From positions 1 to 15,997 of the forward strand of contig CAVHFU010000032.1 in assembly GCA_963635575.1 (NCBI GenBank): DNA of 15,997 bases, written 5' to 3'. Under the pieces are notes generated by a model. It was not told where the DNA came from and searched no databases. It saw only the letters and a list, made by a program, of their open reading frames with translations. Of this stretch, positions 4,908-15,250 are shown piece by piece; the first letter of the stretch is position 1; every line of letters begins with the position of its first letter. Source of the DNA: a bacterium. Lineage in GTDB: Bacteria > Bacillota > Clostridia > TANB77 > RGIG9151. The translations under genes were made by a program, and so were the position numbers.

Positions 4908-5035
4908 TTTTCATTCCTCCTCACATATAAATAGTATTCATTCTTTTTGGATTTGTTTACATATTAGGCGGTGATTTCTGAAAAATGTATGCGTAAATAA
5001 TAAGGGTAATTTGTCGAAAGATAATTGTTTCTTTA

Positions 5036-5064
5036 TTGACTTTTTGTGATGGAAATTATAGAAT
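5036..5064 (+). promoter_or_regulatory. sigma-A type promoter of the rex-adhE-hyd operon
   Basis: -35 TTGACT (5036-5041), 17-nt spacer, -10 TAGAAT (5059-5064), about 40 nt upstream of the rex ATG. AGGAGG RBS at 5091-5096. Confidence 0.6.
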
Positions 5065-5103
5065 TATATCGATAATGGAATATCAATATGAGGAGGCGAG
5101 AAA

Positions 5104-5763
5104 ATGGACTGCGAGATTTATAAGTCTGTGCCTACTGCGACACTTTCAAGATTACCGATTTATTACAGATATCTAATTAAACTTCAAAAGTTTGGGGAAA
5201 AAAATATATCGTCGGCTAAAATTTCGTCCGATATGAATTTAAGTGCCGTTCAGGTAAGAAAAGACCTCGCTTGTGTGAGCAGTATTGCAGGTAGACCCAA
5301 AACTGGCTTTGATGTCGATGAGCTAATTAAAGATATTGCCTTATTTTTAGGGTATGACAATACAACAGACGCAATAATAGTTGGGGTAGGGCAACTTGGG
5401 AGAACCTTATTATCTTATGCGGGATTTGAGAATTATGGATTAAATATTGTTGCAGGGTTTGATGTGAATGAAAAAATTATTGGTAGCAAGGTAAATGGCA
5501 AGCTTATAATGCCTATTGAAAAATTAAAGAATTTTGCTGAGCGTATAAATGCACATATTGGCATAATTACTGTTCCATATCAAGAAGCACAAAAAGTTTG
5601 TGACGTGTTGGTTGAGGCTGGAATAAAGGCAATTTGGAATTTTGCACCTACACATATTTATGTGCCGGAGGGGGTAGTAATAAAAGATGAAGATATTGCC
5701 TCGTCGTTAGCTATATTATCCGGGCAACTAAAAGATTTATATAAAGGAGAGAGAGTATTATGA
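5104..5763 (+). CDS. rex: Redox-sensing transcriptional repressor Rex (NADH/NAD+ sensor)
   Basis: 219 aa. N-terminal winged-helix LSRLPIYYRYL...VRKDL, Rossmann motif GVGQLGRTL, and C-terminal WNFAP block, all typical of Rex. Confidence 0.9.
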   Translation: MDCEIYKSVPTATLSRLPIYYRYLIKLQKFGEKNISSAKISSDMNLSAVQVRKDLACVSSIAGRPKTGFDVDELIKDIALFLGYDNTTDAIIVGVGQLGRTLLSYAGFENYGLNIVAGFDVNEKIIGSKVNGKLIMPIEKLKNFAERINAHIGIITVPYQEAQKVCDVLVEAGIKAIWNFAPTHIYVPEGVVIKDEDIASSLAILSGQLKDLYKGERVL

Positions 5764-8339
5764 GAGATGTTAATGAAATGGTAAATGAGTTAGCAGTCAA
5801 GGCTGAAAAAGCTCTTAGAGAGTATATGCTCCTTGACCAAAAACAAGTCGACAAGATAGTTAATGCGATGGCATTAGCGGGACTTGACCATCATATGGAA
5901 CTAGCCAGAATGGCTGCCGAGGAGACCAATAGAGGTGTGTATGAAGACAAGGTTATTAAAAATATTTTCGCTACTGAATATATATGGCATTCGATAAAAG
6001 ATGAAAAAACAGTAGGAACTATTGAAGAAAATGAACTTGAAGGGTATGTTGAAGTGGCAGAGCCAATAGGAATTGTTGCCGGAGTTACACCGGTTACAAA
6101 CCCAACTTCTACAACAATGTTTAAATCATTAATTTGTGCAAAGGCTAGAAACCCTATTATATTTGGATTTCATCCGTCTGCTCAACAATGTTCAAAAAGA
6201 GCTGCTGAAATCTTAAGAGAAGCTGCTGTTAAGGCGGGAGCTCCTGAGGATTGTATTCAATGGATAGAAGAACCATCTATTGAAGCGACTACTGCTCTTA
6301 TGAATCATCCAAGTGTTTCTCTTATTTTGGCAACAGGTGGTGCCGGAATGGTTAAATCTGCGTATAGCTGCGGAAAACCTGCTTTAGGTGTTGGACCTGG
6401 TAATGCACCTTGCTATATTGAAACTACTGCAAAGCTAAAGAGAGCTTGTACAGACTTAATGCTTTCTAAAACTTTTGATAATGGTATGATCTGTGCGTCC
6501 GAACAGGCTGTCGTTGTTGATAGGGTTGTTCAATCAGCCTTTGAAGAGTATATGAAGGCGAATAATTGTTATTTCTTAAATGATGATGAAATCAGACAAC
6601 TTACGGAATTTATGATGCCTGAGGGTAAACTTAATTCTAAAGTTGTTGGTATGCCGGCTAGTGTTATTGCAGAAATGGCGGGAATAAATGTAGATAGCAA
6701 AACTAAGATTTTAATAGCTAAGCTTGACGGGGTTGGACCTGAATATCCGCTTTCAAAAGAAAAGTTATCTCCTGTTTTGGCGTACTACGTAGTAGACGGA
6801 TATGAAGAAGGTTTTGATGTTTGTAAGAGAATCTTAGATTTTGGCGGACTTGGACATTCAGCTATTATTCACAGCAATAATGAAGGGATTATTAAGAAGT
6901 TTGGCGAAGCGATGAAGGTTGGAAGAATAATTGTTAATTCACCTTCTTCACAAGGTGCAATTGGCGATATTTATAATACAAATACTCCGTCACTTACTTT
7001 AGGATGCGGTTCTTATGGACATAACAGTACGACCTCTAATGTATCTACCGTGAATCTTATAAATAAAAAGAAAATAGCAGAAAGAAGGGTTAATATGCAA
7101 TGGTTTAAAATTCCACCGAAGATTTATTTTGAAAAAGATTCAATTCAATATTTAGAGAACATGGAAGGTATTTCTAGAGCATTTATTGTTACTGACCCAA
7201 TGATGGTAAAACTCGGGTATGTTGATAAGGCATTATATTATCTAAGAAAAAGAGAGCAATATTGTCACTCAAAGATTTACTCAGACGTTGAGCCTGATCC
7301 GGATGTAGATACAATTATGCGCGGCGTAGCAGAAATGCGTGACTTTAAGCCGGATGTTATCATTGCTATTGGCGGTGGTTCTGCAATTGACGCAGCTAAG
7401 GGTATGTGGCTATTTTATGAGCATCCTGATGCTACTTTTGATGGACTTAAACAAAAGTTTATGGATATAAGAAAAAGAGTTGTTAAATTCCCTAATTTAG
7501 GACAATTAGCAAAATTTGTTGCTGTGCCTACAACAAGTGGAACAGGTAGTGAAGTTACAGCGTTTGCAGTTATTACAGATAGGAAGAATGGAAATATTAA
7601 ATATCCTTTGGCGGATTATGCATTAAAACCGGATGTTGCAATTATTGACCCACAATTTGTAATGAGTCTACCAAAATCTTCAACAGCAGATACCGGTATG
7701 GACGTTTTAACACACGCACTAGAAGCATATGTTTCTAATATGGCTAGTGATTATACTGATGGTCTTGCACTTCAAGCTATGGACTTAGTATTTGACTACT
7801 TGAAACGTGCTTATGACCATGGTGAGGAAGATGAGAAAGCAAGAGAGAAAATGCATAATGCAAGTTGTATTGCCGGAATGGCATTTACTAATGCTTTCTT
7901 GGGATTAAACCACAGTATGGCTCATAAATTAGGAGGGGAGTACCACATTCCTCATGGTAGAGCGAATGCAGTATTGCTTCCGTATGTTATAAAATACAAC
8001 GCAACAAAACCTACAAAATTTGCTACATTCCCTAAATACGAATACTTTGTTGCAGATGAGAAGTATGCGAAAGCCGCAAGATTTATCGGACTTGCAGGAA
8101 ATACAACAGAAGAAAGTGTAGATAACCTAATTAAGGCTATAAGACAATTAATGAGAGATTTAAATATGCCGATGTCTATTCGTGAATGTGGTGTAGATGA
8201 AGACGTATTTATGTCGGGATTAAGAAAATTAGCTGAAAATGCTCACGACGACCAATGCACAGGTGCAAATCCAAGATATCCTCTTGTTGAAGAAATTATG
8301 GAGCTTTATAAACAAGCTTATTACGGAGAGGAAAATTAG
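5760..8339 (+). CDS. adhE: Bifunctional acetaldehyde-CoA / alcohol dehydrogenase
   Basis: 859 aa. The N-terminal ALDH domain has the catalytic-Cys block [11 protein letters not shown]. The C-terminal Fe-ADH domain has [10 protein letters not shown] and [18 protein letters not shown]. The ATG overlaps the rex stop (ATGA, 5760-5763). A GGAGAGAGAG SD lies upstream. Confidence 0.97.
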
Positions 8340-8355
8340 AAAGGAGAATATAGTT

Positions 8356-8604
8356 ATGGTATTGAAGGTTTGCGTAGGAAGTTCATGTCACTTAAAAGGT
8401 TCTTATGATGTTATTGAGAAATTTAAAGAACTGTTAAAAAAATATGAAGTAGAAGATGTAATAGAGTTACAAGCAAGTTTCTGTCTTGGACATTGCTCAG
8501 AGGGCGTTACTGTTAAGGCTGACGAGAGATTTATATTAAATGTTAATGCTGACAATGCAGAGGAGATTTTTATAAATGAAATTTTGCCGTCTGTAAACGG
8601 TTAG
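8356..8604 (+). CDS. Small thioredoxin-like [2Fe-2S] ferredoxin (NuoE/HydC-like fold)
   Basis: 82 aa counted from ATG 8356, which lies 9 nt after AAGGAG (8341-8346). Cys pattern is Cx4Cx31Cx3C (CVGSSC ... CLGHC). The tracked ORF start at 8239 lies inside adhE and has no SD. Confidence 0.8.
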   Translation: MVLKVCVGSSCHLKGSYDVIEKFKELLKKYEVEDVIELQASFCLGHCSEGVTVKADERFILNVNADNAEEIFINEILPSVNG

Positions 8605-8617
8605 GAGTGAGAGCTTT

Positions 8618-10324
8618 ATGGAGGAATATTTAGAATTTAAAAATGCAAAATGTAAAGACTGTTATAAATGCCTAAGAGAATGCCCCGTAAAAGCTATAAA
8701 AGTTGTGGATCACCAAGCTAAAATTATAAAGGAAAGATGTATTTTGTGTGGCAAATGCACTAAGGTTTGCCCACAAAATGCAAAACGAGTACACAGTTCT
8801 AAAGACGAAGTGCTAGAGTTAATAAGGAATAATAAAAAAGTTGTGGCAAGTATTGCACCTTCATTTGTTTCAAGTTTTAAAGTAAAAGATTTTTCTATTA
8901 TGAAAATTGCTTTATGTAAGCTTGGCTTTTTCGATGCAGAAGAGACTTCAATCGGAGCAAATGTAGTAGTCCAAGAATATGAAAAGCTTTTAAAAAGTGG
9001 AAAGTATAAGAACTTTATTACGTCTGCCTGTCCGGCTATAAATAGGATGATACAAATTTATTATCCTAAAGTATTACCTTATTTAGCTCCTGTTGATACT
9101 CCGGCTGTTGTACACGCTAAAATGATTAAAGAAGCGGATAGTGAAGCAAAAGTTGTTTTCATAGGACCTTGCATAGCAAAAAAGATGGAAGGTAAAGAAA
9201 GCAAGGTTATAGATGGTGTATTGACTTTTGAAGAACTTTTAGAGTTATTTAATGAAAATAACATTGATCTGTCAATGATTTCTGATGTGTCTGTTGATGA
9301 GGATAAGAAGATTACAAACAGAGCGAAGTATTTCCCTATTAGCAGAGGAATTATAAAGTCTTTTGCTACATTACCTGAGGGGTATGAGTATATAGCTATT
9401 GACGGAGTTGAACGTTGCTTTGAAGTATTAAATAGTATGGATGAGCTTTCCGGTATATTCTTAGAGATTAATAGTTGTGCGGGAGCTTGTATAAACGGGC
9501 CTTGTAGCTTGACAAAGGAAAAGGAATGTATAAACTCAAATGCTACAATAAGGAACTATGTAAAAAAAGAATTAGAAAACAGTATCGGAAATGAAAAGGT
9601 GCAATATGACTTAGATTTTACTAAAGAATACGATAGATTAAGGGCTGGTGATATTCCGGGAACAGATAAGCAAATCGAGGCTATACTAGCTAAGACCGGA
9701 AAACTAAAACCGGAAGATGAGCTAAACTGCGGTGTGTGTGGTTATTCTACTTGCCGTGCAAAAGCTTGGGCGGTACTAAATGGATATGCAGATATTGATA
9801 TGTGTCTTCCATATATGAGGAAGAAAGCGGAATCTATGTCATATGAAATTATTCAAAATAGTCCAAACGGAATTATAGTTGTAGATAATGAATTAAAAAT
9901 TGTGGATATAAATGCGAAGGCAATGGAACTTGGCGGTATGATAGGGTATGATGTTAAAGGTAAATATGTCGTTGATTACTTTGAGCCGACCGACTTTGTG
10001 TTTGCACTAAATGATGAAAAGAATGTTATAAGAAAGAAAATGTATATTCCAAAAACAAAATCTTATGTTGAACTTTCTGTTACCTATATGAAAGAGCATA
10101 AGACTATGTTTGCAATTATGAAGGATATTACAAGTGGTGTAAATTATAACGAGAAACTAAATAGTGTTAAGCAAGAAACTTTTAAAACCACAGATGAAGT
10201 TATAAACAAACAAATGAGAGTAGTTCAAGAAATTGCATCGTTACTTGGTGAAACTACGGCAGAGTCAAAAGTGGCATTGCTTAAGTTAAAGAAGACCTTG
10301 CAAGAGGAGGAGGAAGAAGAATGA
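8618..10324 (+). CDS. hydS: Sensory-type [FeFe]-hydrogenase-like protein (HydS/HfsB-like): 2x[4Fe-4S] ferredoxin domain, H-cluster domain, Cx2Cx4Cx16C motif, PAS domain
   Basis: N-terminus has CKDCYKCLRECP and CILCGKCTKVCP. H-domain motifs are TSACP (L1), GPCIAKKME (L2) and EINSCAGACING (L3). CGVCGYSTC-x16-C lies at 9728-9805. A PAS-like segment (NSPNGIIVVDNELKIVDINAKAMEL...) spans about 9833-10136. The C-terminus is a helical tail ending in EEEEEE. Confidence 0.85.
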   Translation: MEEYLEFKNAKCKDCYKCLRECPVKAIKVVDHQAKIIKERCILCGKCTKVCPQNAKRVHSSKDEVLELIRNNKKVVASIAPSFVSSFKVKDFSIMKIALCKLGFFDAEETSIGANVVVQEYEKLLKSGKYKNFITSACPAINRMIQIYYPKVLPYLAPVDTPAVVHAKMIKEADSEAKVVFIGPCIAKKMEGKESKVIDGVLTFEELLELFNENNIDLSMISDVSVDEDKKITNRAKYFPISRGIIKSFATLPEGYEYIAIDGVERCFEVLNSMDELSGIFLEINSCAGACINGPCSLTKEKECINSNATIRNYVKKELENSIGNEKVQYDLDFTKEYDRLRAGDIPGTDKQIEAILAKTGKLKPEDELNCGVCGYSTCRAKAWAVLNGYADIDMCLPYMRKKAESMSYEIIQNSPNGIIVVDNELKIVDINAKAMELGGMIGYDVKGKYVVDYFEPTDFVFALNDEKNVIRKKMYIPKTKSYVELSVTYMKEHKTMFAIMKDITSGVNYNEKLNSVKQETFKTTDEVINKQMRVVQEIASLLGETTAESKVALLKLKKTLQEEEEEE

Positions 10325-11481
10325 GCCTTTTTCTCGAATACGGATACACTTCTCTTAATAAAGTGGGAGAGGAATTGTGCGGGGATAATGTAGATATTGC
10401 AGTTAATGGAAAGTATACTACTTTGGTTTTAGCTGATGGTCTTGGAAGTGGGGTAAAGGCTAATATATTATCTACACTTACTTCTAAAATCTTATGTACA
10501 ATGATTTCTAATGATATAGACATTGAAGAATGTATTGAAACAATAATACAGTCATTGCCTGTTTGCAAAGTTAGAGGACTTGCATATTCCACATTTTCTG
10601 TTGTTCATATAGATAATGAAGGAAAAGGCTATTTAGTTGAATTTGATAATCCACAAGCGATTTATTTACACAATAATAAGGCTTTGGATTTTGAAAGAGA
10701 ACGACTTGATATTTTAGGAAAAGTTGTATATAAAACAGAAATTGAATTAGAGCCGTCCGATGTAATTGTGGTTATGTCGGATGGAACAGTTCATGCAGGA
10801 ATTGGAATGCTTCTTAATTTAGGATGGCAAAGGGCAGAAATTATGGAGTATTTAGAGAAAACAGTTACTCCAAAAATGTCTGCTAGGTGTATAGCTTGTT
10901 TACTTGCATCTGCTTGTAATGATTTATATCTTGATAAACCGGGCGATGACACTACTGTTGCAGCTGTTAGAATAAGAGAAAATTCTCAAATTAACATTAT
11001 GGTAGGCCCACCGGTAGATAAGTCTAGAGATAACGAGTATATAGGTGAATTTATGCATATGCAAGGTAAGCATATCGTATGCGGAGGTACAAGTTCTCAG
11101 ATTGTTGCAAGATATTTAGGCGAAGAGCTTCATACAAGCTTAGACTTTTCAGATAAAGAAATTCCGCCTATTGCATTTATAAAAGGAATTGATTTAGTAA
11201 CAGAAGGTGTCATTACAATTAGAAAGCTTCTTAGTATGTCTGAAAAATATTTAGATGTCAAAGATGTTACGCCTAAGTATTATGTAAAAAATGATGGGGC
11301 ATCTTTACTGGCAGAAGCCTTATTTGAAGATGCAACAAATGTTAATTTTTTTGTTGGACAAAGTGTAAACGTAGCACATCAGGGGTTACCTATTGATACG
11401 ACGATGAAGCTAAAACTAGTTGAGTCATTATCCGAGAACTTAAAGAAAATGGGCAAAGTTGTTACTGTTAAGTATTTTTAG
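10321..11481 (+). CDS. PP2C/SpoIIE-family serine phosphatase with an unassigned ~165-aa C-terminal domain
   Basis: 386 aa. Metal-ligand blocks CGDN, LADGLGSG, MSDG and GDDTT are typical of SpoIIE/RsbU-type PP2C. The ATG overlaps the hydS stop (ATGA, 10321-10324). GGAGGA lies 6 nt upstream. Confidence 0.85.
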   Translation: MSLFLEYGYTSLNKVGEELCGDNVDIAVNGKYTTLVLADGLGSGVKANILSTLTSKILCTMISNDIDIEECIETIIQSLPVCKVRGLAYSTFSVVHIDNEGKGYLVEFDNPQAIYLHNNKALDFERERLDILGKVVYKTEIELEPSDVIVVMSDGTVHAGIGMLLNLGWQRAEIMEYLEKTVTPKMSARCIACLLASACNDLYLDKPGDDTTVAAVRIRENSQINIMVGPPVDKSRDNEYIGEFMHMQGKHIVCGGTSSQIVARYLGEELHTSLDFSDKEIPPIAFIKGIDLVTEGVITIRKLLSMSEKYLDVKDVTPKYYVKNDGASLLAEALFEDATNVNFFVGQSVNVAHQGLPIDTTMKLKLVESLSENLKKMGKVVTVKYF

Positions 11482-11493
11482 GGGAGGTATATT

Positions 11494-12027
11494 ATGAGAG
11501 TTCTTATAGCATCAGATATTCATGGTTCCGAGTTCTTTATGAGGAAGTTAATGGAACGATATGCAAAAGAGAATGTTGAACAACTTATTTTGTTAGGAGA
11601 TTTATATTATCATGGCCCGAGAAATTCTTTGCCTGAAGGATATAACTCACAAAAGGTAGCGGACATCTTAAATAATATTTCGGACAAAATTTTATGTGTT
11701 AGAGGAAATTGCGATAGTGAGGTAGATGAGATGATTTCAAAGTTTCATTTTACTGAGAACTTGCAATTATATATAAACAATAAAAAAGTATTCCTCACAC
11801 ATGGTCATAAACTAGATGAGGAAAACTTGGTAAATGCTTATGACATCATTATCTATGGTCATTTGCATACCGGATTTATTAAAAAAGTGAAAAATACAAT
11901 AGTGGCTAATACAGGTTCGGTGTCACTACCTAAGAACAAAACAGCCAATAGCTACATAATTCTTGATGATAACAGAATAGAGTTGAAAGATTTAGCAGGA
12001 AATTTAATTGAAAGTGAGGATTTTTAG
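11494..12027 (+). CDS. yfcE: YfcE / MJ0936-family metallophosphoesterase (phosphodiesterase)
   Basis: 177 aa. Motifs SDIHGS, LLGDLYYHGPRNSLPEGY, VRGNCDSEVD, LTHGH, YGHLH and NTGSVSLPK are collinear with E. coli YfcE as I remember it. GGAGG lies 6 nt upstream of the ATG. Confidence 0.85.
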   Translation: MRVLIASDIHGSEFFMRKLMERYAKENVEQLILLGDLYYHGPRNSLPEGYNSQKVADILNNISDKILCVRGNCDSEVDEMISKFHFTENLQLYINNKKVFLTHGHKLDEENLVNAYDIIIYGHLHTGFIKKVKNTIVANTGSVSLPKNKTANSYIILDDNRIELKDLAGNLIESEDF

Positions 12028-12028
12028 G

Positions 12029-13462
12029 ATGAAAAAGTTTGATACAAAAGTTCAACATCTTAAATATAAAGTTTTAAGGGAGGTAATAAAAAAGGCAGAT
12101 GCAGACGATTTACAAAATGTCTATCGCGATGTGCCAAACATTGTAGTACCTGGTCCTAAGGCAAGTATGAGATGTTGTATATATAAAGAAAGAGCTATTG
12201 TTCAAGAAAGAATTAAAATGGCTCTTGGTGGAGACAAGGAAAATCCTAATGTTGTTGAAGTTATAGATATAGCATGTGATGAATGTCCAATTGAAGGAAT
12301 GTTGGTGACACAAGCATGCCGTGGATGTATAGTTAACAGATGTACAGAAGTATGTCCTAGGGGAGCTATTAGCATTATCAACAAGAAGGCTGTAATAGAC
12401 AAAGAAAAATGTGTAGAATGTGGCTTATGTACGAAAGCTTGCCCATATTCAGCTATTATTGCTCAAAAAAGACCTTGTGTAAATAGTTGCAAAGTTAAAG
12501 CCATTAGTATGGGAGAAGATAAAAAGGCTGTAATAGATAATGACAAGTGTATTTCTTGTGGTGCTTGTGTTTACCAATGCCCATTTGGCGCTATTGTGGA
12601 CAAGTCTTTAATTATGGAAGTATTAAAGATATTAAAGGATTCTGACAATAATAAGAACTACAATGTTTATGCGGTTATTGCTCCTTCAATTGTTAGCCAG
12701 TTTAAGTATGCAAAAATTGAACAAATCATTACCGGTATCAAGAAGTTAGGATTCCACCATGTAGTTGAAGCTGCATTGGGTGCAGACATTACTTTATATC
12801 ACGAATTAGGAGAGCTAAAAGAAAAAGGTGTTATGACCACATCTTGTTGTCCATCATTCGTTATGTTTATTGAGAAGAATTTCCCTGAATTAACTAAATA
12901 TATTTCAAGTTCTGTTTCTCCAATGGTTGAGACAGCTAAGCTGATTAAGAGATCTGATCCTACTGCAAAGGTTATTTTCATAGGACCTTGTTCTAGCAAA
13001 AAACGTGAGTATAAGTTGCCTAAGACTGGAGGAGCTATTGATAGTGTTTTATCATTTGAGGAATTACAAGCGTTCTTTGATGCTAGGGAAATAGATATTG
13101 CATCATTAGAAGAATCCTCTTTAGATAATGCATCTTATTACGGAAGAATATTTGCAAAGTCAGGTGGTATTGCTAAGGGTGTACGTGAAATCGGAGAAAG
13201 TATGGGACTTGATGTAAAACCTGCAGTAATGAATGGAATTGATGAATGCAGAGCTAATTTATTAAGATTAAAAGCTAATAAAGCTGTTGAAAATTTCTTT
13301 GAAGGAATGGCTTGTGACGGTGGATGCTTAAATGGTGCGTTGTGCTTAAGCCATGGCCCTAAAAATGCAGCTGATGTAGATAAGTATGGTGAGGATGCTA
13401 AAGAAAAGAGCATAGATAATTCTGTAAGGTTATATGAAATGAGCCTTAAGAAATCTGAATAG
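12029..13462 (+). CDS. hydA: Catalytic-type monomeric [FeFe]-hydrogenase with multi-[4Fe-4S] N-terminus (HydA2/HfsD-like, group B-like)
   Basis: Canonical H-cluster motifs TSCCPSF (12839-12853), GPCSSKKRE and EGMACDGGCLNG. N-terminal cluster motifs are CRGCIVNRCTEVCP, CVECGLCTKACP and CISCGACVYQCP. ATG 12029 lies 8 nt after GTGAGGA and 1 nt after the yfcE stop. It is preferred over the tracked TTG 12008, which lies inside yfcE. Confidence 0.9.
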   Translation: MKKFDTKVQHLKYKVLREVIKKADADDLQNVYRDVPNIVVPGPKASMRCCIYKERAIVQERIKMALGGDKENPNVVEVIDIACDECPIEGMLVTQACRGCIVNRCTEVCPRGAISIINKKAVIDKEKCVECGLCTKACPYSAIIAQKRPCVNSCKVKAISMGEDKKAVIDNDKCISCGACVYQCPFGAIVDKSLIMEVLKILKDSDNNKNYNVYAVIAPSIVSQFKYAKIEQIITGIKKLGFHHVVEAALGADITLYHELGELKEKGVMTTSCCPSFVMFIEKNFPELTKYISSSVSPMVETAKLIKRSDPTAKVIFIGPCSSKKREYKLPKTGGAIDSVLSFEELQAFFDAREIDIASLEESSLDNASYYGRIFAKSGGIAKGVREIGESMGLDVKPAVMNGIDECRANLLRLKANKAVENFFEGMACDGGCLNGALCLSHGPKNAADVDKYGEDAKEKSIDNSVRLYEMSLKKSE

Positions 13463-13497: not shown

Positions 13498-13525
13498 TTG
13501 ACAAAAATGGAATTATGTATATAAT
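13498..13525 (+). promoter_or_regulatory. Near-consensus sigma-A promoter for the orphan gene
   Basis: -35 TTGACA (13498-13503), 16-nt spacer, -10 TATAAT (13520-13525). Confidence 0.65.
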
Positions 13526-13589
13526 AGAAGATGTAAGTAAGGAATAAATGTTTAACCTATCCATTTTTTTGGAGGGAGGATGTAGTAAA

Positions 13590-14102
13590 ATGGAGACTGG
13601 TAAGAAGAGGTATCCAAATATTTTAATAGAAGGAGAAAATCGTATGAAGTATAATAATCCGGAGGCTTTGGAAAGAAAGTTAAGAGGCATCATTGAGAAA
13701 AGACGTGAAGATGAAGCAAAGGTTAAAGAAGTTCCACATGAGGTGATGTATGACAGGATGGTTCAGGAAGCTGTTCTAGTTATTACGAGCCAATGGGAAA
13801 CACAGTGCAAGTTTTATAGTATCGAGAGAGGTACTGAACTAGTAGCAAGGGCTTTTTTCGTTGTTGAAAATACACTTCACCTCTATAGTGATATTTTTGG
13901 GGTAATTAATCCTAAAACAGGAAAGAGTTGCTTTTATGAGGGATTTAAGTTTGAGTCTATGGACGAATTCTGGAAGTATGTAGAGGATGTTAAAAAGCAG
14001 CTTCCCGAACAAACGGGAGTTATGAAGAAAAGGAAGGAAAATACAACAGTATTTTCCGATGGGCCGGAGGTGCACGTATCCTTCACCTTTAAGATCGAAT
14101 AA
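13590..14102 (+). CDS. Hypothetical protein, no family recognised
   Basis: The ORF runs to the stop at 14100-14102. There are two plausible starts: ATG 13590, 9 nt after GGAGGGAGGA, and ATG 13644, 8 nt after AGGAG. The gene is bracketed by a consensus promoter and a strong terminator. Confidence 0.6.
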   Translation: METGKKRYPNILIEGENRMKYNNPEALERKLRGIIEKRREDEAKVKEVPHEVMYDRMVQEAVLVITSQWETQCKFYSIERGTELVARAFFVVENTLHLYSDIFGVINPKTGKSCFYEGFKFESMDEFWKYVEDVKKQLPEQTGVMKKRKENTTVFSDGPEVHVSFTFKIE

Positions 14103-14109
14103 AAACTTT

Positions 14110-14142
14110 ATACAGTTGGCGAAAGCCAACTGTATTTTTTTC
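14110..14142 (+). terminator. Rho-independent terminator
   Basis: 11-bp stem atacagttggc / gccaactgtat with a GAAA tetraloop, followed by a T7 run (14135-14141). Confidence 0.85.
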
Positions 14143-14689: not shown

Positions 14690-14716
14690 TTAGCACTCTA
14701 TACTTGACAGTGCTAA
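14690..14716 (+). promoter_or_regulatory. CIRCE element (HrcA operator)
   Basis: TTAGCACTC-N9-CAGTGCTAA against the consensus TTAGCACTC-N9-GAGTGCTAA, so 17 of 18 arm positions match. Confidence 0.85.
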
Positions 14717-14731
14717 TCTTGATGATATAAT
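14704..14731 (+). promoter_or_regulatory. sigma-A promoter of the Hsp20 gene, overlapped by CIRCE
   Basis: -35 TTGACA (14704-14709, inside the CIRCE spacer and right arm), 16-nt spacer, extended -10 TGaTATAAT (14723-14731). Confidence 0.7.
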
Positions 14732-14830: not shown

Positions 14831-15250
14831 ATGATGATGATACCAAGAAGAAATGATTTTGATTTATGGAGTGATATGTTTAGAGATTCTTTCTTTACAG
14901 AGCATGAAGCTAAGATGATGAAAACAGATATTAAAGAAGAAAAGGACAGATTTCTAATAGACATTGACTTGCCAGGTTATAATAAAGAAGATGTAAAAAT
15001 TTCAGTAGAAGATGGATACTTAAATGTTCAAGCAACAATGGATTCTAGTAAAGAAGAAAAAGGAAATGGTAAGTTTGTAAGAAGAGAAAGATATGTAGGA
15101 AGTTGTTCTAGAAACTTCTATGTAGGCGATGAAGTTAAGAGCGAGGAGATAAAAGCTTCTTTGAAAAACGGAATTTTGAAATTGGAAATTCCTAAGAAAG
15201 ATGAGACTAAAAAGTTGCCTGAAAAGAAATACATTGCAATTGAAGATTAA
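14831..15250 (+). CDS. Hsp20/alpha-crystallin family small heat-shock protein
   Basis: 139 aa. The alpha-crystallin domain DIKEEKDRFLIDIDLPGYNKEDVKISVEDGYLNV...RRERYVGSCSRNFYV...ASLKNGILKLEIPK resembles clostridial Hsp18. GGGAGAG SD upstream. Confidence 0.92.
   Translation: MMMIPRRNDFDLWSDMFRDSFFTEHEAKMMKTDIKEEKDRFLIDIDLPGYNKEDVKISVEDGYLNVQATMDSSKEEKGNGKFVRRERYVGSCSRNFYVGDEVKSEEIKASLKNGILKLEIPKKDETKKLPEKKYIAIED

Follow-up and report, generated by a model that had tools for sequence, protein, structure and literature searches.

How fermenting bacteria sense H2, and how they shift between forming acetate only and forming acetate plus ethanol, is mechanistically still open, and the matter bears on rumen methane and on biofuel strains. 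We analyzed a stretch of 15,997 nucleotides of a clostridial contig (hereafter, the window), in which the gene of a redox-sensing repressor is followed by genes of ethanol and H2 formation. The locus raises the question of whether these genes form a single unit, to which kind of system they belong and how they would be controlled. A first-pass annotation of this DNA had described a gap-free operon under one promoter, of a composition not known to it from described clusters, and had suggested post-translational control of electron partitioning on top of transcriptional regulation by Rex.

All seven genes lie on the + strand and start with ATG (Table 1). The junctions, in order from rex to hydA, measure -4 (ATGA), 16, 13, -4 (ATGA), 12 and 1 nt, and each of the seven starts is preceded at 5-12 nt by a purine-rich SD site. 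A second, independent gene caller run on the source contig returned the identical seven products (219, 859, 82, 568, 386, 177 and 477 aa). The first-pass annotation had placed all of these genes, junctions and SD sites correctly, as well as the promoter-like site, and profile matches and junction coordinates bear out its gene identities as well as its gap-free single-promoter layout. The unit is a tight seven-gene operon, and a further copy of the cluster known from Ruminococcus albus and Clostridium thermocellum.

Table 1. Positions of the genes and regulatory features of the seven-gene unit in the window
Feature	Position	Strand	Description
Promoter, sigma-70 type	5036-5064	+	TTGACT-17-TAGAAT; 10/12 positions match
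Candidate operator	5068-5087	.	Dyad ATCGAT-N8-ATCAAT (TCGATAATGGAATATCAA at 5069-5086); starts 4 nt past the -10 hexamer
rex	5104-5763	+	Redox-sensing repressor, divergent subfamily; NF003994 273 bits (cut-off 130)
adhE	5760-8339	+	Bifunctional acetaldehyde-CoA/alcohol dehydrogenase; NF010378 1397 bits; start overlaps rex stop
fdx	8356-8604	+	Small thioredoxin-like [2Fe-2S] ferredoxin, HfsA-like; PF01257; Cys pattern CVGSSC...CLGHC
hydS	8618-10324	+	PAS-containing [FeFe]-hydrogenase-like putative sensor (HfsB/HydS)
PP2C	10321-11481	+	SpoIIE-family Ser/Thr phosphatase (HfsC); PF07228; start overlaps hydS stop
yfcE	11494-12027	+	YfcE-family metallophosphodiesterase; NF006988 193 bits (cut-off 117)
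hydA	12029-13462	+	Monomeric group-B ferredoxin-type [FeFe] hydrogenase (HfsD/HydA2); TIGR04105 542 bits (cut-off 450)

The closest counterpart is the R. albus 7 locus on pRUMAL01 (RUMAL_RS17350-17385), which reads rex-adhE-phosphotransferase-fdx-fdx-hydS-PP2C-hydA2 and has the order, orientation and tight junctions of the window. It holds an orthologue of every window gene but yfcE, with identities of 42% for rex, 48% for adhE, 39-41% for fdx, 42% over the full length for hydS, 45% for PP2C and 59% for hydA/HydA2. The cluster is plasmid-borne. It differs from the window in two added genes, for an APH-like kinase and for a further [2Fe-2S] ferredoxin, and in the L1 motif of its HydS, SSCCH in place of TSACP. 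A putative eight-gene R. albus cluster with the gene content of the pRUMAL01 locus is down-regulated 111-fold at low H2; the cluster is reported as H2-responsive and co-regulated, with AdhE and HydA co-induced (PMC6776011). In C. (Acetivibrio) thermocellum, Cthe_0422-0430 (Clo1313_1799-1793) encode Rex, AdhE, an aminoglycoside-phosphotransferase-like protein, a hypothetical HfsA-like protein, an Fe-S/HydS protein, a SpoIIE protein and a hydrogenase. This locus has the kinase and no yfcE, and the downstream hydrogenase is trimeric and NADH-linked/bifurcating (Cthe_0428-0430), whereas the window has a monomeric group-B HydA. Cthe_0422-0432 respond as a block (PMC3848806), and deletion of hfsB raises ethanol (PMC5707799). 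Since rex and adhE already lie inside the co-regulated cluster in both organisms, the composition is not new.

The core of the unit corresponds to hfsABCD of Thermoanaerobacterium saccharolyticum, which encodes a small protein, a PAS [FeFe] hydrogenase, a Ser phosphatase and a ferredoxin-linked hydrogenase similar to HydA2 (PMC5707799, PMC11837493). As in the window, no kinase is part of this operon; yfcE is missing too, and adhE (Tsac_0416) and rex are treated as loci apart from it (PMC5707799). Of the genetic evidence that the module is regulatory, that from hfsABCD is the strongest: deletion of hfsB raises adhE expression and ethanol, and hfsC and hfsD are required (PMC5707799). That PAS-containing HydS and PP2C constitute a putative H2-sensing module tied to adhE and hydA is a published hypothesis for both R. 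albus (PMC6776011) and hfsABCD (PMC5707799), in agreement with the initial proposal for the window. The HydS domains, PP2C, fdx, hydA and the upstream rex-adhE pair of this cluster type are all present in the window, and the APH-like kinase is missing. We consider it likely that the unit is the orthologue of the R. albus pRUMAL01 and C. thermocellum rex-adhE-hfs clusters and acts as a single-promoter cassette for high-H2, high-NADH fermentation.

We surveyed synteny in 80 species loci, with denominators of 72, 62 and 54 for individual neighbours. The fdx-hydS-PP2C order is invariant (72/72 loci), with fdx immediately 5' of hydS in all. Downstream, hydA follows PP2C in 52 of 62 loci; upstream, rex occurs in 22 of 54 and full-length adhE in 16 of 54. 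Overall, the cluster is widespread, with at least 580 matching stretches among species-representative genomes, many Bacteroidales included. The adjacency of rex and adhE to the hyd genes, for which the first-pass annotation had suggested a synteny search, recurs in many species. The two differences that it had pointed out, a missing kinase and an added yfcE, are both real in comparison with R. albus and C. thermocellum. However, the kinase is also absent from 68 of the 80 loci (present in 12), and yfcE between PP2C and hydA is rare (5/62 loci). Within the window, tblastn with the L013 kinase returned no APH-like kinase, and adhE and fdx are 16 nt apart.

Canonical Rex regulons combine a winged helix and a Rossmann NADH sensor with adhE and hydrogenase targets, autoregulation and an 18-bp 7-4-7 dyad (PMC8457756). 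The window Rex has the two-domain architecture (winged-helix PF06971 and Rossmann PF02629, with the Rossmann motif GVGQLG at aa 94-99) and matches the Rex structure 3wg9 (E 2.7e-41). The locus lends no support to ordinary Rex control, as first supposed. No canonical Rex box (TTGTGAA-N4-TTCACAA or TTGTTAA-N4-TTAACAA) with up to three mismatches occurs near positions 4908-5103, and the best candidates 5' of rex have four mismatches. In its place stands a variant dyad, TCGATAA-N4-TTATCGA, whose half-site TCGATAA shares 4/7 positions with the canonical TTGTGAA. The recognition wing is remodelled as well and reads VRKDLACVSSIAGRPKTGF, compared to IRxDFSYFGxxGxxGYGY in solved Rex structures. According to our sequence comparison, a distinct DNA-binding wing is common to all cluster-linked Rex proteins, and R. 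albus Rex has the divergent wing of the window Rex. C. thermocellum Rex_1799 is a divergent paralogue, for which the available part of PMC8457756 reports no binding motif.

The candidate operator came from a scan with the canonical Rex-box pattern and has the same 7-4-7 register. It is the sole match to the consensus in the window, with two mismatches to TCGATAA-N4-TTATCGA and a G-rich spacer. A single site of this quality would not reach significance in a stretch of 16 kb without the comparative data. In 1.29 Mb of related loci we found 15, 20 and 23 sites at 0, 1 and 2 mismatches, compared to 0, 0-1 and 2-8 in the shuffled loci. All 58 sites lie directly 5' of rex, adhE or fdx, apart from those in front of a fumarase/aspartase-family gene in four Bacteroidales loci, and a spacing of N8 is strongly preferred across loci. 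R. albus has a perfect related ATCGAT palindrome 5' of rex, which differs in its spacing (N9 instead of N8) and lies upstream of the likely -35. Because many operator-bearing loci have no rex within 10 kb, a regulator other than Rex could act at the site. The closest relative, the sister species L001, has a deletion of rex and has retained the promoter: despite the deletion, the two hexamers stand unchanged at the corresponding site, and the operator has decayed. An equivalent promoter, TTGACA-17-TATGAT, occupies this place in another locus, L002.

In HydS of Thermotoga maritima and in further putative sensory [FeFe] hydrogenases, a PAS domain and an additional [4Fe-4S] site accompany an H-cluster domain whose proton-transfer residues are altered. 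HydS of the window is composed of two Fer4 domains (2x[4Fe-4S]), Fe_hyd_lg_C (PF02906), a PF04060 FeS domain and PAS. Its H-cluster motifs are TSACP, in which the first Cys of the canonical TSCCP is replaced by Ala, GPC and SCAGAC. The replacement is not universal, with TSACP in 48 and TSCCP in 22 of 77 orthologues. HydA has the canonical TSCCP, together with MACDGGC. YfcE exceeds the cut-off of its family HMM (Table 1) and that of TIGR00040 (97.7, cut-off 56); its metal ligands and the motifs DIHG, GDLY, GNCD, THGH and GHLH are intact. Judged from these motifs, the phosphodiesterase is intact; its gene was inserted in this lineage.

For PP2C, the AF2 model has a pLDDT of 81, the N-domain matches SpoIIE 5mqh (E 1.4e-12) and the metal-binding Asp residues D22, D39, D154, D209 and D210 are invariant. 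Its C-terminal alpha/beta domain (aa 222-386) is conserved and uncharacterised; it gave no hit in Pfam and nothing significant in the PDB. The same domain also forms a protein of its own, whose neighbours are an APH-like kinase and a [2Fe-2S] ferredoxin of the HfsA type. For this reason the domain may serve as phospho-acceptor in a new kinase/phosphatase switch under redox control, which would carry the HydS signal. The window itself encodes neither a kinase nor a substrate for PP2C. A partner-switching module (SpoIIE/RsbU PP2C, STAS protein and anti-sigma kinase) is not supported, as only the PP2C fold matches; STAS and HATPase domains are absent from the seven products and from the flanking products scanned.

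These features may be joined in one reading, which we put forward tentatively and with the chances somewhat against it: a distinct Rex subfamily with its own operator, and a phospho-relay through the PP2C C-terminal domain. In the Rex part, the wing VRKDLAxVSxxxGKP[KR]xGF would recognise the non-canonical operator ATCGAT-N8-ATCGAT. The subfamily would take in R. albus pRUMAL01 Rex, which shares the wing, and C. thermocellum Rex_1799 would be placed with it by synteny only.

Within the cassette, regulation would start from the first product of the operon itself. The divergent Rex, with its NADH-binding Rossmann domain, is predicted to bind the dyad at 5068-5087, and a rise in NADH/NAD+ would release it and turn on all seven genes, in a negative autoregulation. 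Overlapping or 1-16 nt junctions, with an SD site for each gene, would couple translation. If the roles proposed in the literature for R. albus are carried over, AdhE would reoxidise NADH to form ethanol and the group-B HydA would reoxidise reduced ferredoxin to form H2. Both sinks would be needed together once a bifurcating hydrogenase fails to dispose of both carriers, which would explain why AdhE and HydA are on one mRNA. The two are best understood as sinks, one for NADH and one for ferredoxin, that are required together, and not as competing branches. The invariant core of a small [2Fe-2S] protein, HydS (proton-relay Cys to Ala, extra Fe-S site, PAS) and the PP2C phosphatase probably turns H2 or redox state into dephosphorylation of a phosphoprotein, with feedback on expression. 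A sensor role of this core is probable from its domains, its conservation and the published genetics.

The first-pass annotation had favoured another output, in which HydS, PP2C and YfcE would control AdhE and/or HydA after translation, so that electrons are divided between ethanol and H2 by H2 pressure, on top of ordinary Rex control. The intact PP2C catalytic site and YfcE metal ligands are consistent with it, as is the rise of NADH-ADH activity without NADH-ALDH in T. saccharolyticum hfsB mutants, in which the authors saw a hint of post-transcriptional regulation (PMC5707799). We regard this output as unlikely, however, as transcript-level changes dominate the published effects, namely the 111-fold change in R. 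albus (PMC6776011) and that of adhE mRNA in T. saccharolyticum hfsB mutants (PMC5707799). Moreover, AdhE and HydA are under one promoter here and co-induced in R. albus, as partners and not alternatives; one promoter cannot shift the AdhE:HydA ratio because both rise and fall together. YfcE cannot be a general transducer, since its gene is missing from 57 of 62 clusters. The lack of a canonical Rex box also argues against this output, and phosphorylation of AdhE or HydA is not documented in the cited literature.

It seems to us distinctly improbable that the genes are not one transcription unit, that is, that transcription of the distal genes starts from promoters within hydS or PP2C and compactness reflects genome streamlining only. 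Promoter-like sites matching 10/12 positions do occur on the + strand at 9509, 10946 (with a TG extension) and 12305, and the presence of a separate operator for each of rex, adhE and fdx in many relatives shows that promoters under separate regulation exist elsewhere. However, such sites are only as frequent as expected by chance (78 in the window, 70 +/- 8 in shuffles), and by this measure the 5036-5064 site alone is not above chance either. The largest intergenic space is 16 nt, two junctions overlap, the window has a single copy of the operator and orthologous clusters respond as a block. Inside the operon there are only three terminator candidates, all weak (5-6 bp, at 6645, 8494 and 12771); the whole window has 11, compared to 6.5 +/- 3.4 in shuffles. 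No terminator lies directly 3' of hydA (fold z-score -0.10) and the first good one, at 14110-14135, is past the next gene, which leaves the 3' end of the transcript undefined. For this next gene there is a separate promoter at 13498-13525, which matches 12/12 positions.

That fdx, HydS and PP2C instead join HydA in a heteromeric Hfs hydrogenase, as its subunits or accessory factors, forming an electron-transfer complex and not a sensor, has little chance of being right. In favour of it, the four genes are always linked and coupled in translation, the hfs operon was first taken as the main hydrogenase, hfsABCD deletion lowers hydrogenase activity (PMC5707799) and 22/77 HydS orthologues keep the canonical TSCCP. 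Against it, deletion of hfsB alone raises hydrogenase activity and alters adhE expression (PMC5707799), the window HydS lacks the proton-relay Cys and has a PAS domain, PP2C phosphatases are not known to serve as redox subunits, and 10 of 62 loci have fdx-hydS-PP2C without a downstream hydA.

The window is thus no new kind of system, and the single-promoter cassette remains our preferred reading. As far as sequence comparison can tell, what is new here is the variant dyad, the shared divergent wing of Rex, and the loss of rex with the promoter kept in L001. The comparison yields three testable handles. The first is a candidate operator for an unstudied adhE-linked Rex paralogue. The second is the natural rex deletion in the sister species, where the promoter is kept. 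The third is a conserved trio, in which the C-domain goes with a kinase and a ferredoxin; it hints at where the PP2C signal may go. If the distinct Rex subfamily is real, it would supply a candidate DNA motif for Rex_1799, as this paralogue is described in the available part of PMC8457756, and would define a dedicated adhE/hfs-hydrogenase regulon common to Clostridia and Bacteroidales.

An independent gene caller, run on the source contig in the Logan assembly of SRR13434665, returned the same seven products as the first-pass annotation, and the positions of the seven open reading frames agree (see table). The six junctions measure -4, 16, 13, -4, 12 and 1 nt, and an SD-like purine run lies 5' of each of the seven starts. 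Pfam and NCBIfam also confirmed all seven proposed identities: Rex (NF003994, 273 bits against a cut-off of 130), AdhE (NF010378, 1397 bits), a thioredoxin-like [2Fe-2S] ferredoxin (fdx), HydS with two [4Fe-4S] motifs, an H-cluster domain, a PF04060 Fe-S motif and a PAS domain, a SpoIIE-family phosphatase (PP2C), YfcE (NF006988, 193 bits against a cut-off of 117) and HydA, a TIGR04105 monomeric group-B [FeFe] hydrogenase (542 bits against a cut-off of 450).

Genes of the operon in the window, and contexts of the stand-alone C-terminal domain of PP2C (C-domain) in related loci
Feature	Locus	Position	Strand	Remark
rex	window	5104-5763	+	ATG start
adhE	window	5760-8339	+	ATG start
fdx	window	8356-8604	+	ATG start
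hydS	window	8618-10324	+	ATG start
PP2C	window	10321-11481	+	ATG start
yfcE	window	11494-12027	+	ATG start
hydA	window	12029-13462	+	ATG start
Stand-alone C-domain	L084	1525-2323		fdx, C-domain
Stand-alone C-domain	L085	316-2018		APH-like kinase, fdx, C-domain
Stand-alone C-domain	L088	3060-5489		LysR, APH-like kinase, fdx, C-domain
Stand-alone C-domain	L091	3060-5504		LysR, APH-like kinase, fdx, C-domain, NfnAB-like genes
Stand-alone C-domain	L090			HydS-like gene, two small ORFs, C-domain

Comparison with known clusters places this operon in company. On plasmid pRUMAL01 of R. albus 7, the annotated record gives the order rex, adhE, phosphotransferase, fdx, fdx, hydS, SpoIIE phosphatase and hydA2, with tight junctions, and six of the window's seven genes, yfcE being the exception, have orthologues there at 39-59% identity. 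A putative eight-gene cluster in R. albus is expressed at a 111-fold lower level when an H2 consumer is co-cultured (Greening et al. 2019, PMC6776011); the same study calls the sensory hydrogenase co-transcribed with hydrogenase and alcohol dehydrogenase, and ascribes a phosphatase subunit to it. The C. thermocellum genes Cthe_0422 (rex), 0423 (adhE), 0424 (aminoglycoside phosphotransferase), 0425 (hypothetical), 0426 (Fe-S protein), 0427 (SpoIIE) and 0428-0430 (hydrogenase) respond as a block (PMC3848806). Both T. saccharolyticum and C. thermocellum make more ethanol when hfsB, which encodes the HydS homologue, is deleted; in the former adhE expression also rises, and the effect needs hfsC and hfsD, the PP2C and hydA counterparts (PMC5707799). 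The window operon is therefore a further member of an already described cluster type, and the earlier statement that rex and adhE had not been described inside such a unit was wrong, as both lie within the R. albus and C. thermocellum clusters. A literature search for phosphatase-linked hydrogenases of "Group C3" gave no result.

The protein collection holds more than 8000 relatives of the PP2C, mostly of about 386 aa. We scanned one genome per species, which gave at least 580 loci. The seven window proteins were mapped by tblastn onto the best 80 of these, each with its 10-kb flanks, and only loci with enough flank were counted. Among these best 80, fdx and hydS lie directly upstream of PP2C in every case (72/72) and hydA lies downstream in 52 of 62, while rex is found upstream in 22, full-length adhE in 16 and only its Fe-ADH half in 7 of 54 loci. 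An APH-like kinase gene (PF01636, 250 aa), absent from the window, separates adhE from fdx in 12 of the best 80. The combination of rex, adhE and yfcE without the kinase recurs in one other species of this set (L002); L004 and L013 share the three genes and carry the kinase in addition. The AdhE of the window is 76-80% identical to that of Bacteroidales and Muribaculaceae clusters and only 47-48% identical to that of the Clostridia clusters with the closest PP2C (L004, L005 and L013), so that the cluster appears to be a mosaic, or adhE from two lineages was recruited beside hfs.

The gene yfcE is restricted to one part of the PP2C tree and lies between PP2C and hydA in 5 of 62 loci of the best 80 (L001, L002, L004, L013 and L076). 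YfcE is intact and evolves faster than its neighbours: it is 85% identical to its counterpart in the sister species (L001) and 61% to that in L002, as compared to 93% and 83% for PP2C. It may be a passenger or a participant.

The two hydrogenases differ in their active-site motifs. HydS of the window has TSACP for the canonical TSCCP, GPC for MPC, and SCAGAC, and these changes would fit a poor catalyst. Across 77 orthologues, drawn from L001-L080 and L082, the first of these motifs reads TSACP in 48, TSCCP in 22, TSSCP in 4 and TSVCP in 2; the R. albus protein has SSCCH. The Cys-to-Ala change was thus rejected as a defining mark of HydS, since TSACP occurs in only 48 of the 77. HydA of the window retains TSCCP, and the HydA proteins adjoining HydS orthologues always keep CCP.

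The structure model of the PP2C (pLDDT 81) matches the SpoIIE, RsbU and RsbX phosphatases, and the aspartates that bind metal are invariant. The last 165 residues of the protein make up a highly conserved alpha/beta domain, which has no Pfam match even at E = 10 and no Foldseek match in the PDB at E <= 0.001; the best PDB matches are FwdB (8.8e-3) and the UbiX and methylglyoxal-synthase folds (TM 0.35-0.40), and no fold was assigned. A library-wide search with this domain returned 913 representatives, mostly PP2C fusions of about 390 aa and some stand-alone proteins of about 165 aa. CGG(T/S)(T/S), which in the window PP2C is the CGGTSS loop at aa 254-259, and TEG are invariant across fused and free forms, and DGAS and NxAHQ are strongly conserved in both. 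In four of the stand-alone contexts (L084, L085, L088 and L091) the free domain directly follows an HfsA-like [2Fe-2S] ferredoxin, with no hydrogenase or PP2C nearby. The APH-like kinase lies 5' of the ferredoxin in three of the five informative contexts, and LysR further 5' in two. These arrangements suggest that the core of the signalling may be kinase, [2Fe-2S] protein and C-domain, with HydS and PP2C as additions in the hfs clusters. The window retains the ferredoxin, HydS and PP2C with its C-domain, and lacks the kinase in cis.

The promoter-like TTGACT-17-TAGAAT at 5036-5064 was found as described, with 10 of 12 positions matched. Since the scan found 78 such sites as compared to 70 +/- 8 in shuffles, which is no more than chance, its credibility comes from conservation in relatives. 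Within the operon we found only three weak hairpin candidates of 5-6 bp, and the total for the window is near the shuffle mean. No terminator follows hydA, which corrects the earlier account: the sequence there folds no better than its shuffles (z = -0.10). The first convincing terminator, at 14110-14135, is strong and bidirectional and lies past the next gene. Because hydA lacks a terminator, the operon may read through into this ORF (13548-14102, 170-184 aa, without Pfam match), which lies directly 3' of hydA and has a perfect 12/12 promoter of its own (13498-13525). An Rfam scan of the entire window returned no matches, and therefore no riboswitch or leader.

The flanks of the window hold several other features. 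A CIRCE element (the HrcA operator), TTAGCACTC-N9-GAGTGCTAA with one mismatch, lies at 14690-14716, with a chance expectation of 0.01 sites per window; it overlaps the -35 of a perfect 12/12 promoter (14704-14731), downstream of which is an Hsp20 gene (14831-15250). A gene for a CsoR-type metal-sensing repressor (PF02583, 15683-15997) runs off the window end. At the other end, a low-GC stretch at 1000-2900 (24-28%, compared to 33-38% across the operon) contains an AAA_14/DUF4143 ATPase gene (1323-2522), preceded by a RhuM-family gene (65-1111), and may be acquired DNA.

An ordinary Rex operator was rejected: no canonical box with up to three mismatches lies near the promoter, counts across the window are at chance, and in relatives the best canonical sites 5' of rex differ at 3-6 positions, mostly 4-5. 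When the Rex pattern was run over sequence 5' of rex in related loci, another dyad with the same 7-4-7 geometry emerged, TCGATAA-N4-TTATCGA. Across 1.29 Mb of loci there are 15 exact copies, 20 with one mismatch and 23 with two, compared to 0, 0-1 and 2-8 in block shuffles, and ATCGAT cores at N8 spacing give 41 matches as compared to 1-10 at other spacings. All 58 sites lie just 5' of rex, adhE or fdx, save in four Bacteroidales loci. In these exceptions (L006, L021, L031 and L037; ~13318-13340) rex lies 3' of hydA and the dyad follows rex. In the two that were checked, L006 and L037, the gene after the dyad is of the class-II fumarase/aspartase family, followed in L006 by Nqr genes, which hints at a wider NADH-linked regulon.

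The single copy in the window, TCGATAATGGAATATCAA at 5069-5086, begins 4 nt after the -10 hexamer, so that transcription would be expected to start within it; in L002 the -10 is likewise followed by TATA and then TCGATAA. R. albus has a perfect ATATCGATA-N7-TATCGATAT palindrome 5' of rex, and a Monoglobus plasmid locus (L083) is without the dyad, so the operator is not universal. A literature search for the dyad sequence and Rex gave unrelated primer matches only. All cluster-linked Rex proteins, including that of R. albus, have in common the wing VRKDLAxVSxxxGKP[KR]xGF, where structurally solved Rex proteins have IRxDFSYFGxxGxxGYGY instead. According to Hebdon et al. (PMC8457756), the adhE-linked C. 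thermocellum Rex_1799 is only 34-36% identical to characterised Rex proteins, and the canonical motif was determined just for the other paralogue, Rex_2471. By inference from these sequence patterns, this divergent Rex subfamily would use the dyad as its operator. The sister species L001, the closest in the best 80 of at least 580 loci with proteins 85-95% identical to those of the window, offers a natural experiment. There, about 600 nt of rex are lost (L001 5289-5437 compared to window 5024-5756). The promoter block is kept, its hexamers unchanged, and some 70 nt from the 3' end of rex stand directly before adhE; the dyad has decayed. This loss of rex together with operator decay fits the dyad as a Rex operator.

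Most likely, all seven genes are driven by one promoter and one candidate operator, and Rex, encoded by the first of them, would keep them repressed as long as NADH stays low. NADH would then be spent on ethanol through AdhE, and reduced ferredoxin on H2 through HydA. In the R. albus model both sinks are needed together at high H2 (PMC6776011), because the bifurcating hydrogenase no longer reoxidises both carriers, and this joint need would explain why adhE and hydA share one mRNA. It argues against the partitioning between ethanol and H2 branches that had been proposed. HydS, the ferredoxin and PP2C probably add an H2-specific input. The interest of the operon as first stated is modest; worth following are the candidate operator with its putative Rex subfamily, and the trio of kinase, ferredoxin and C-domain.
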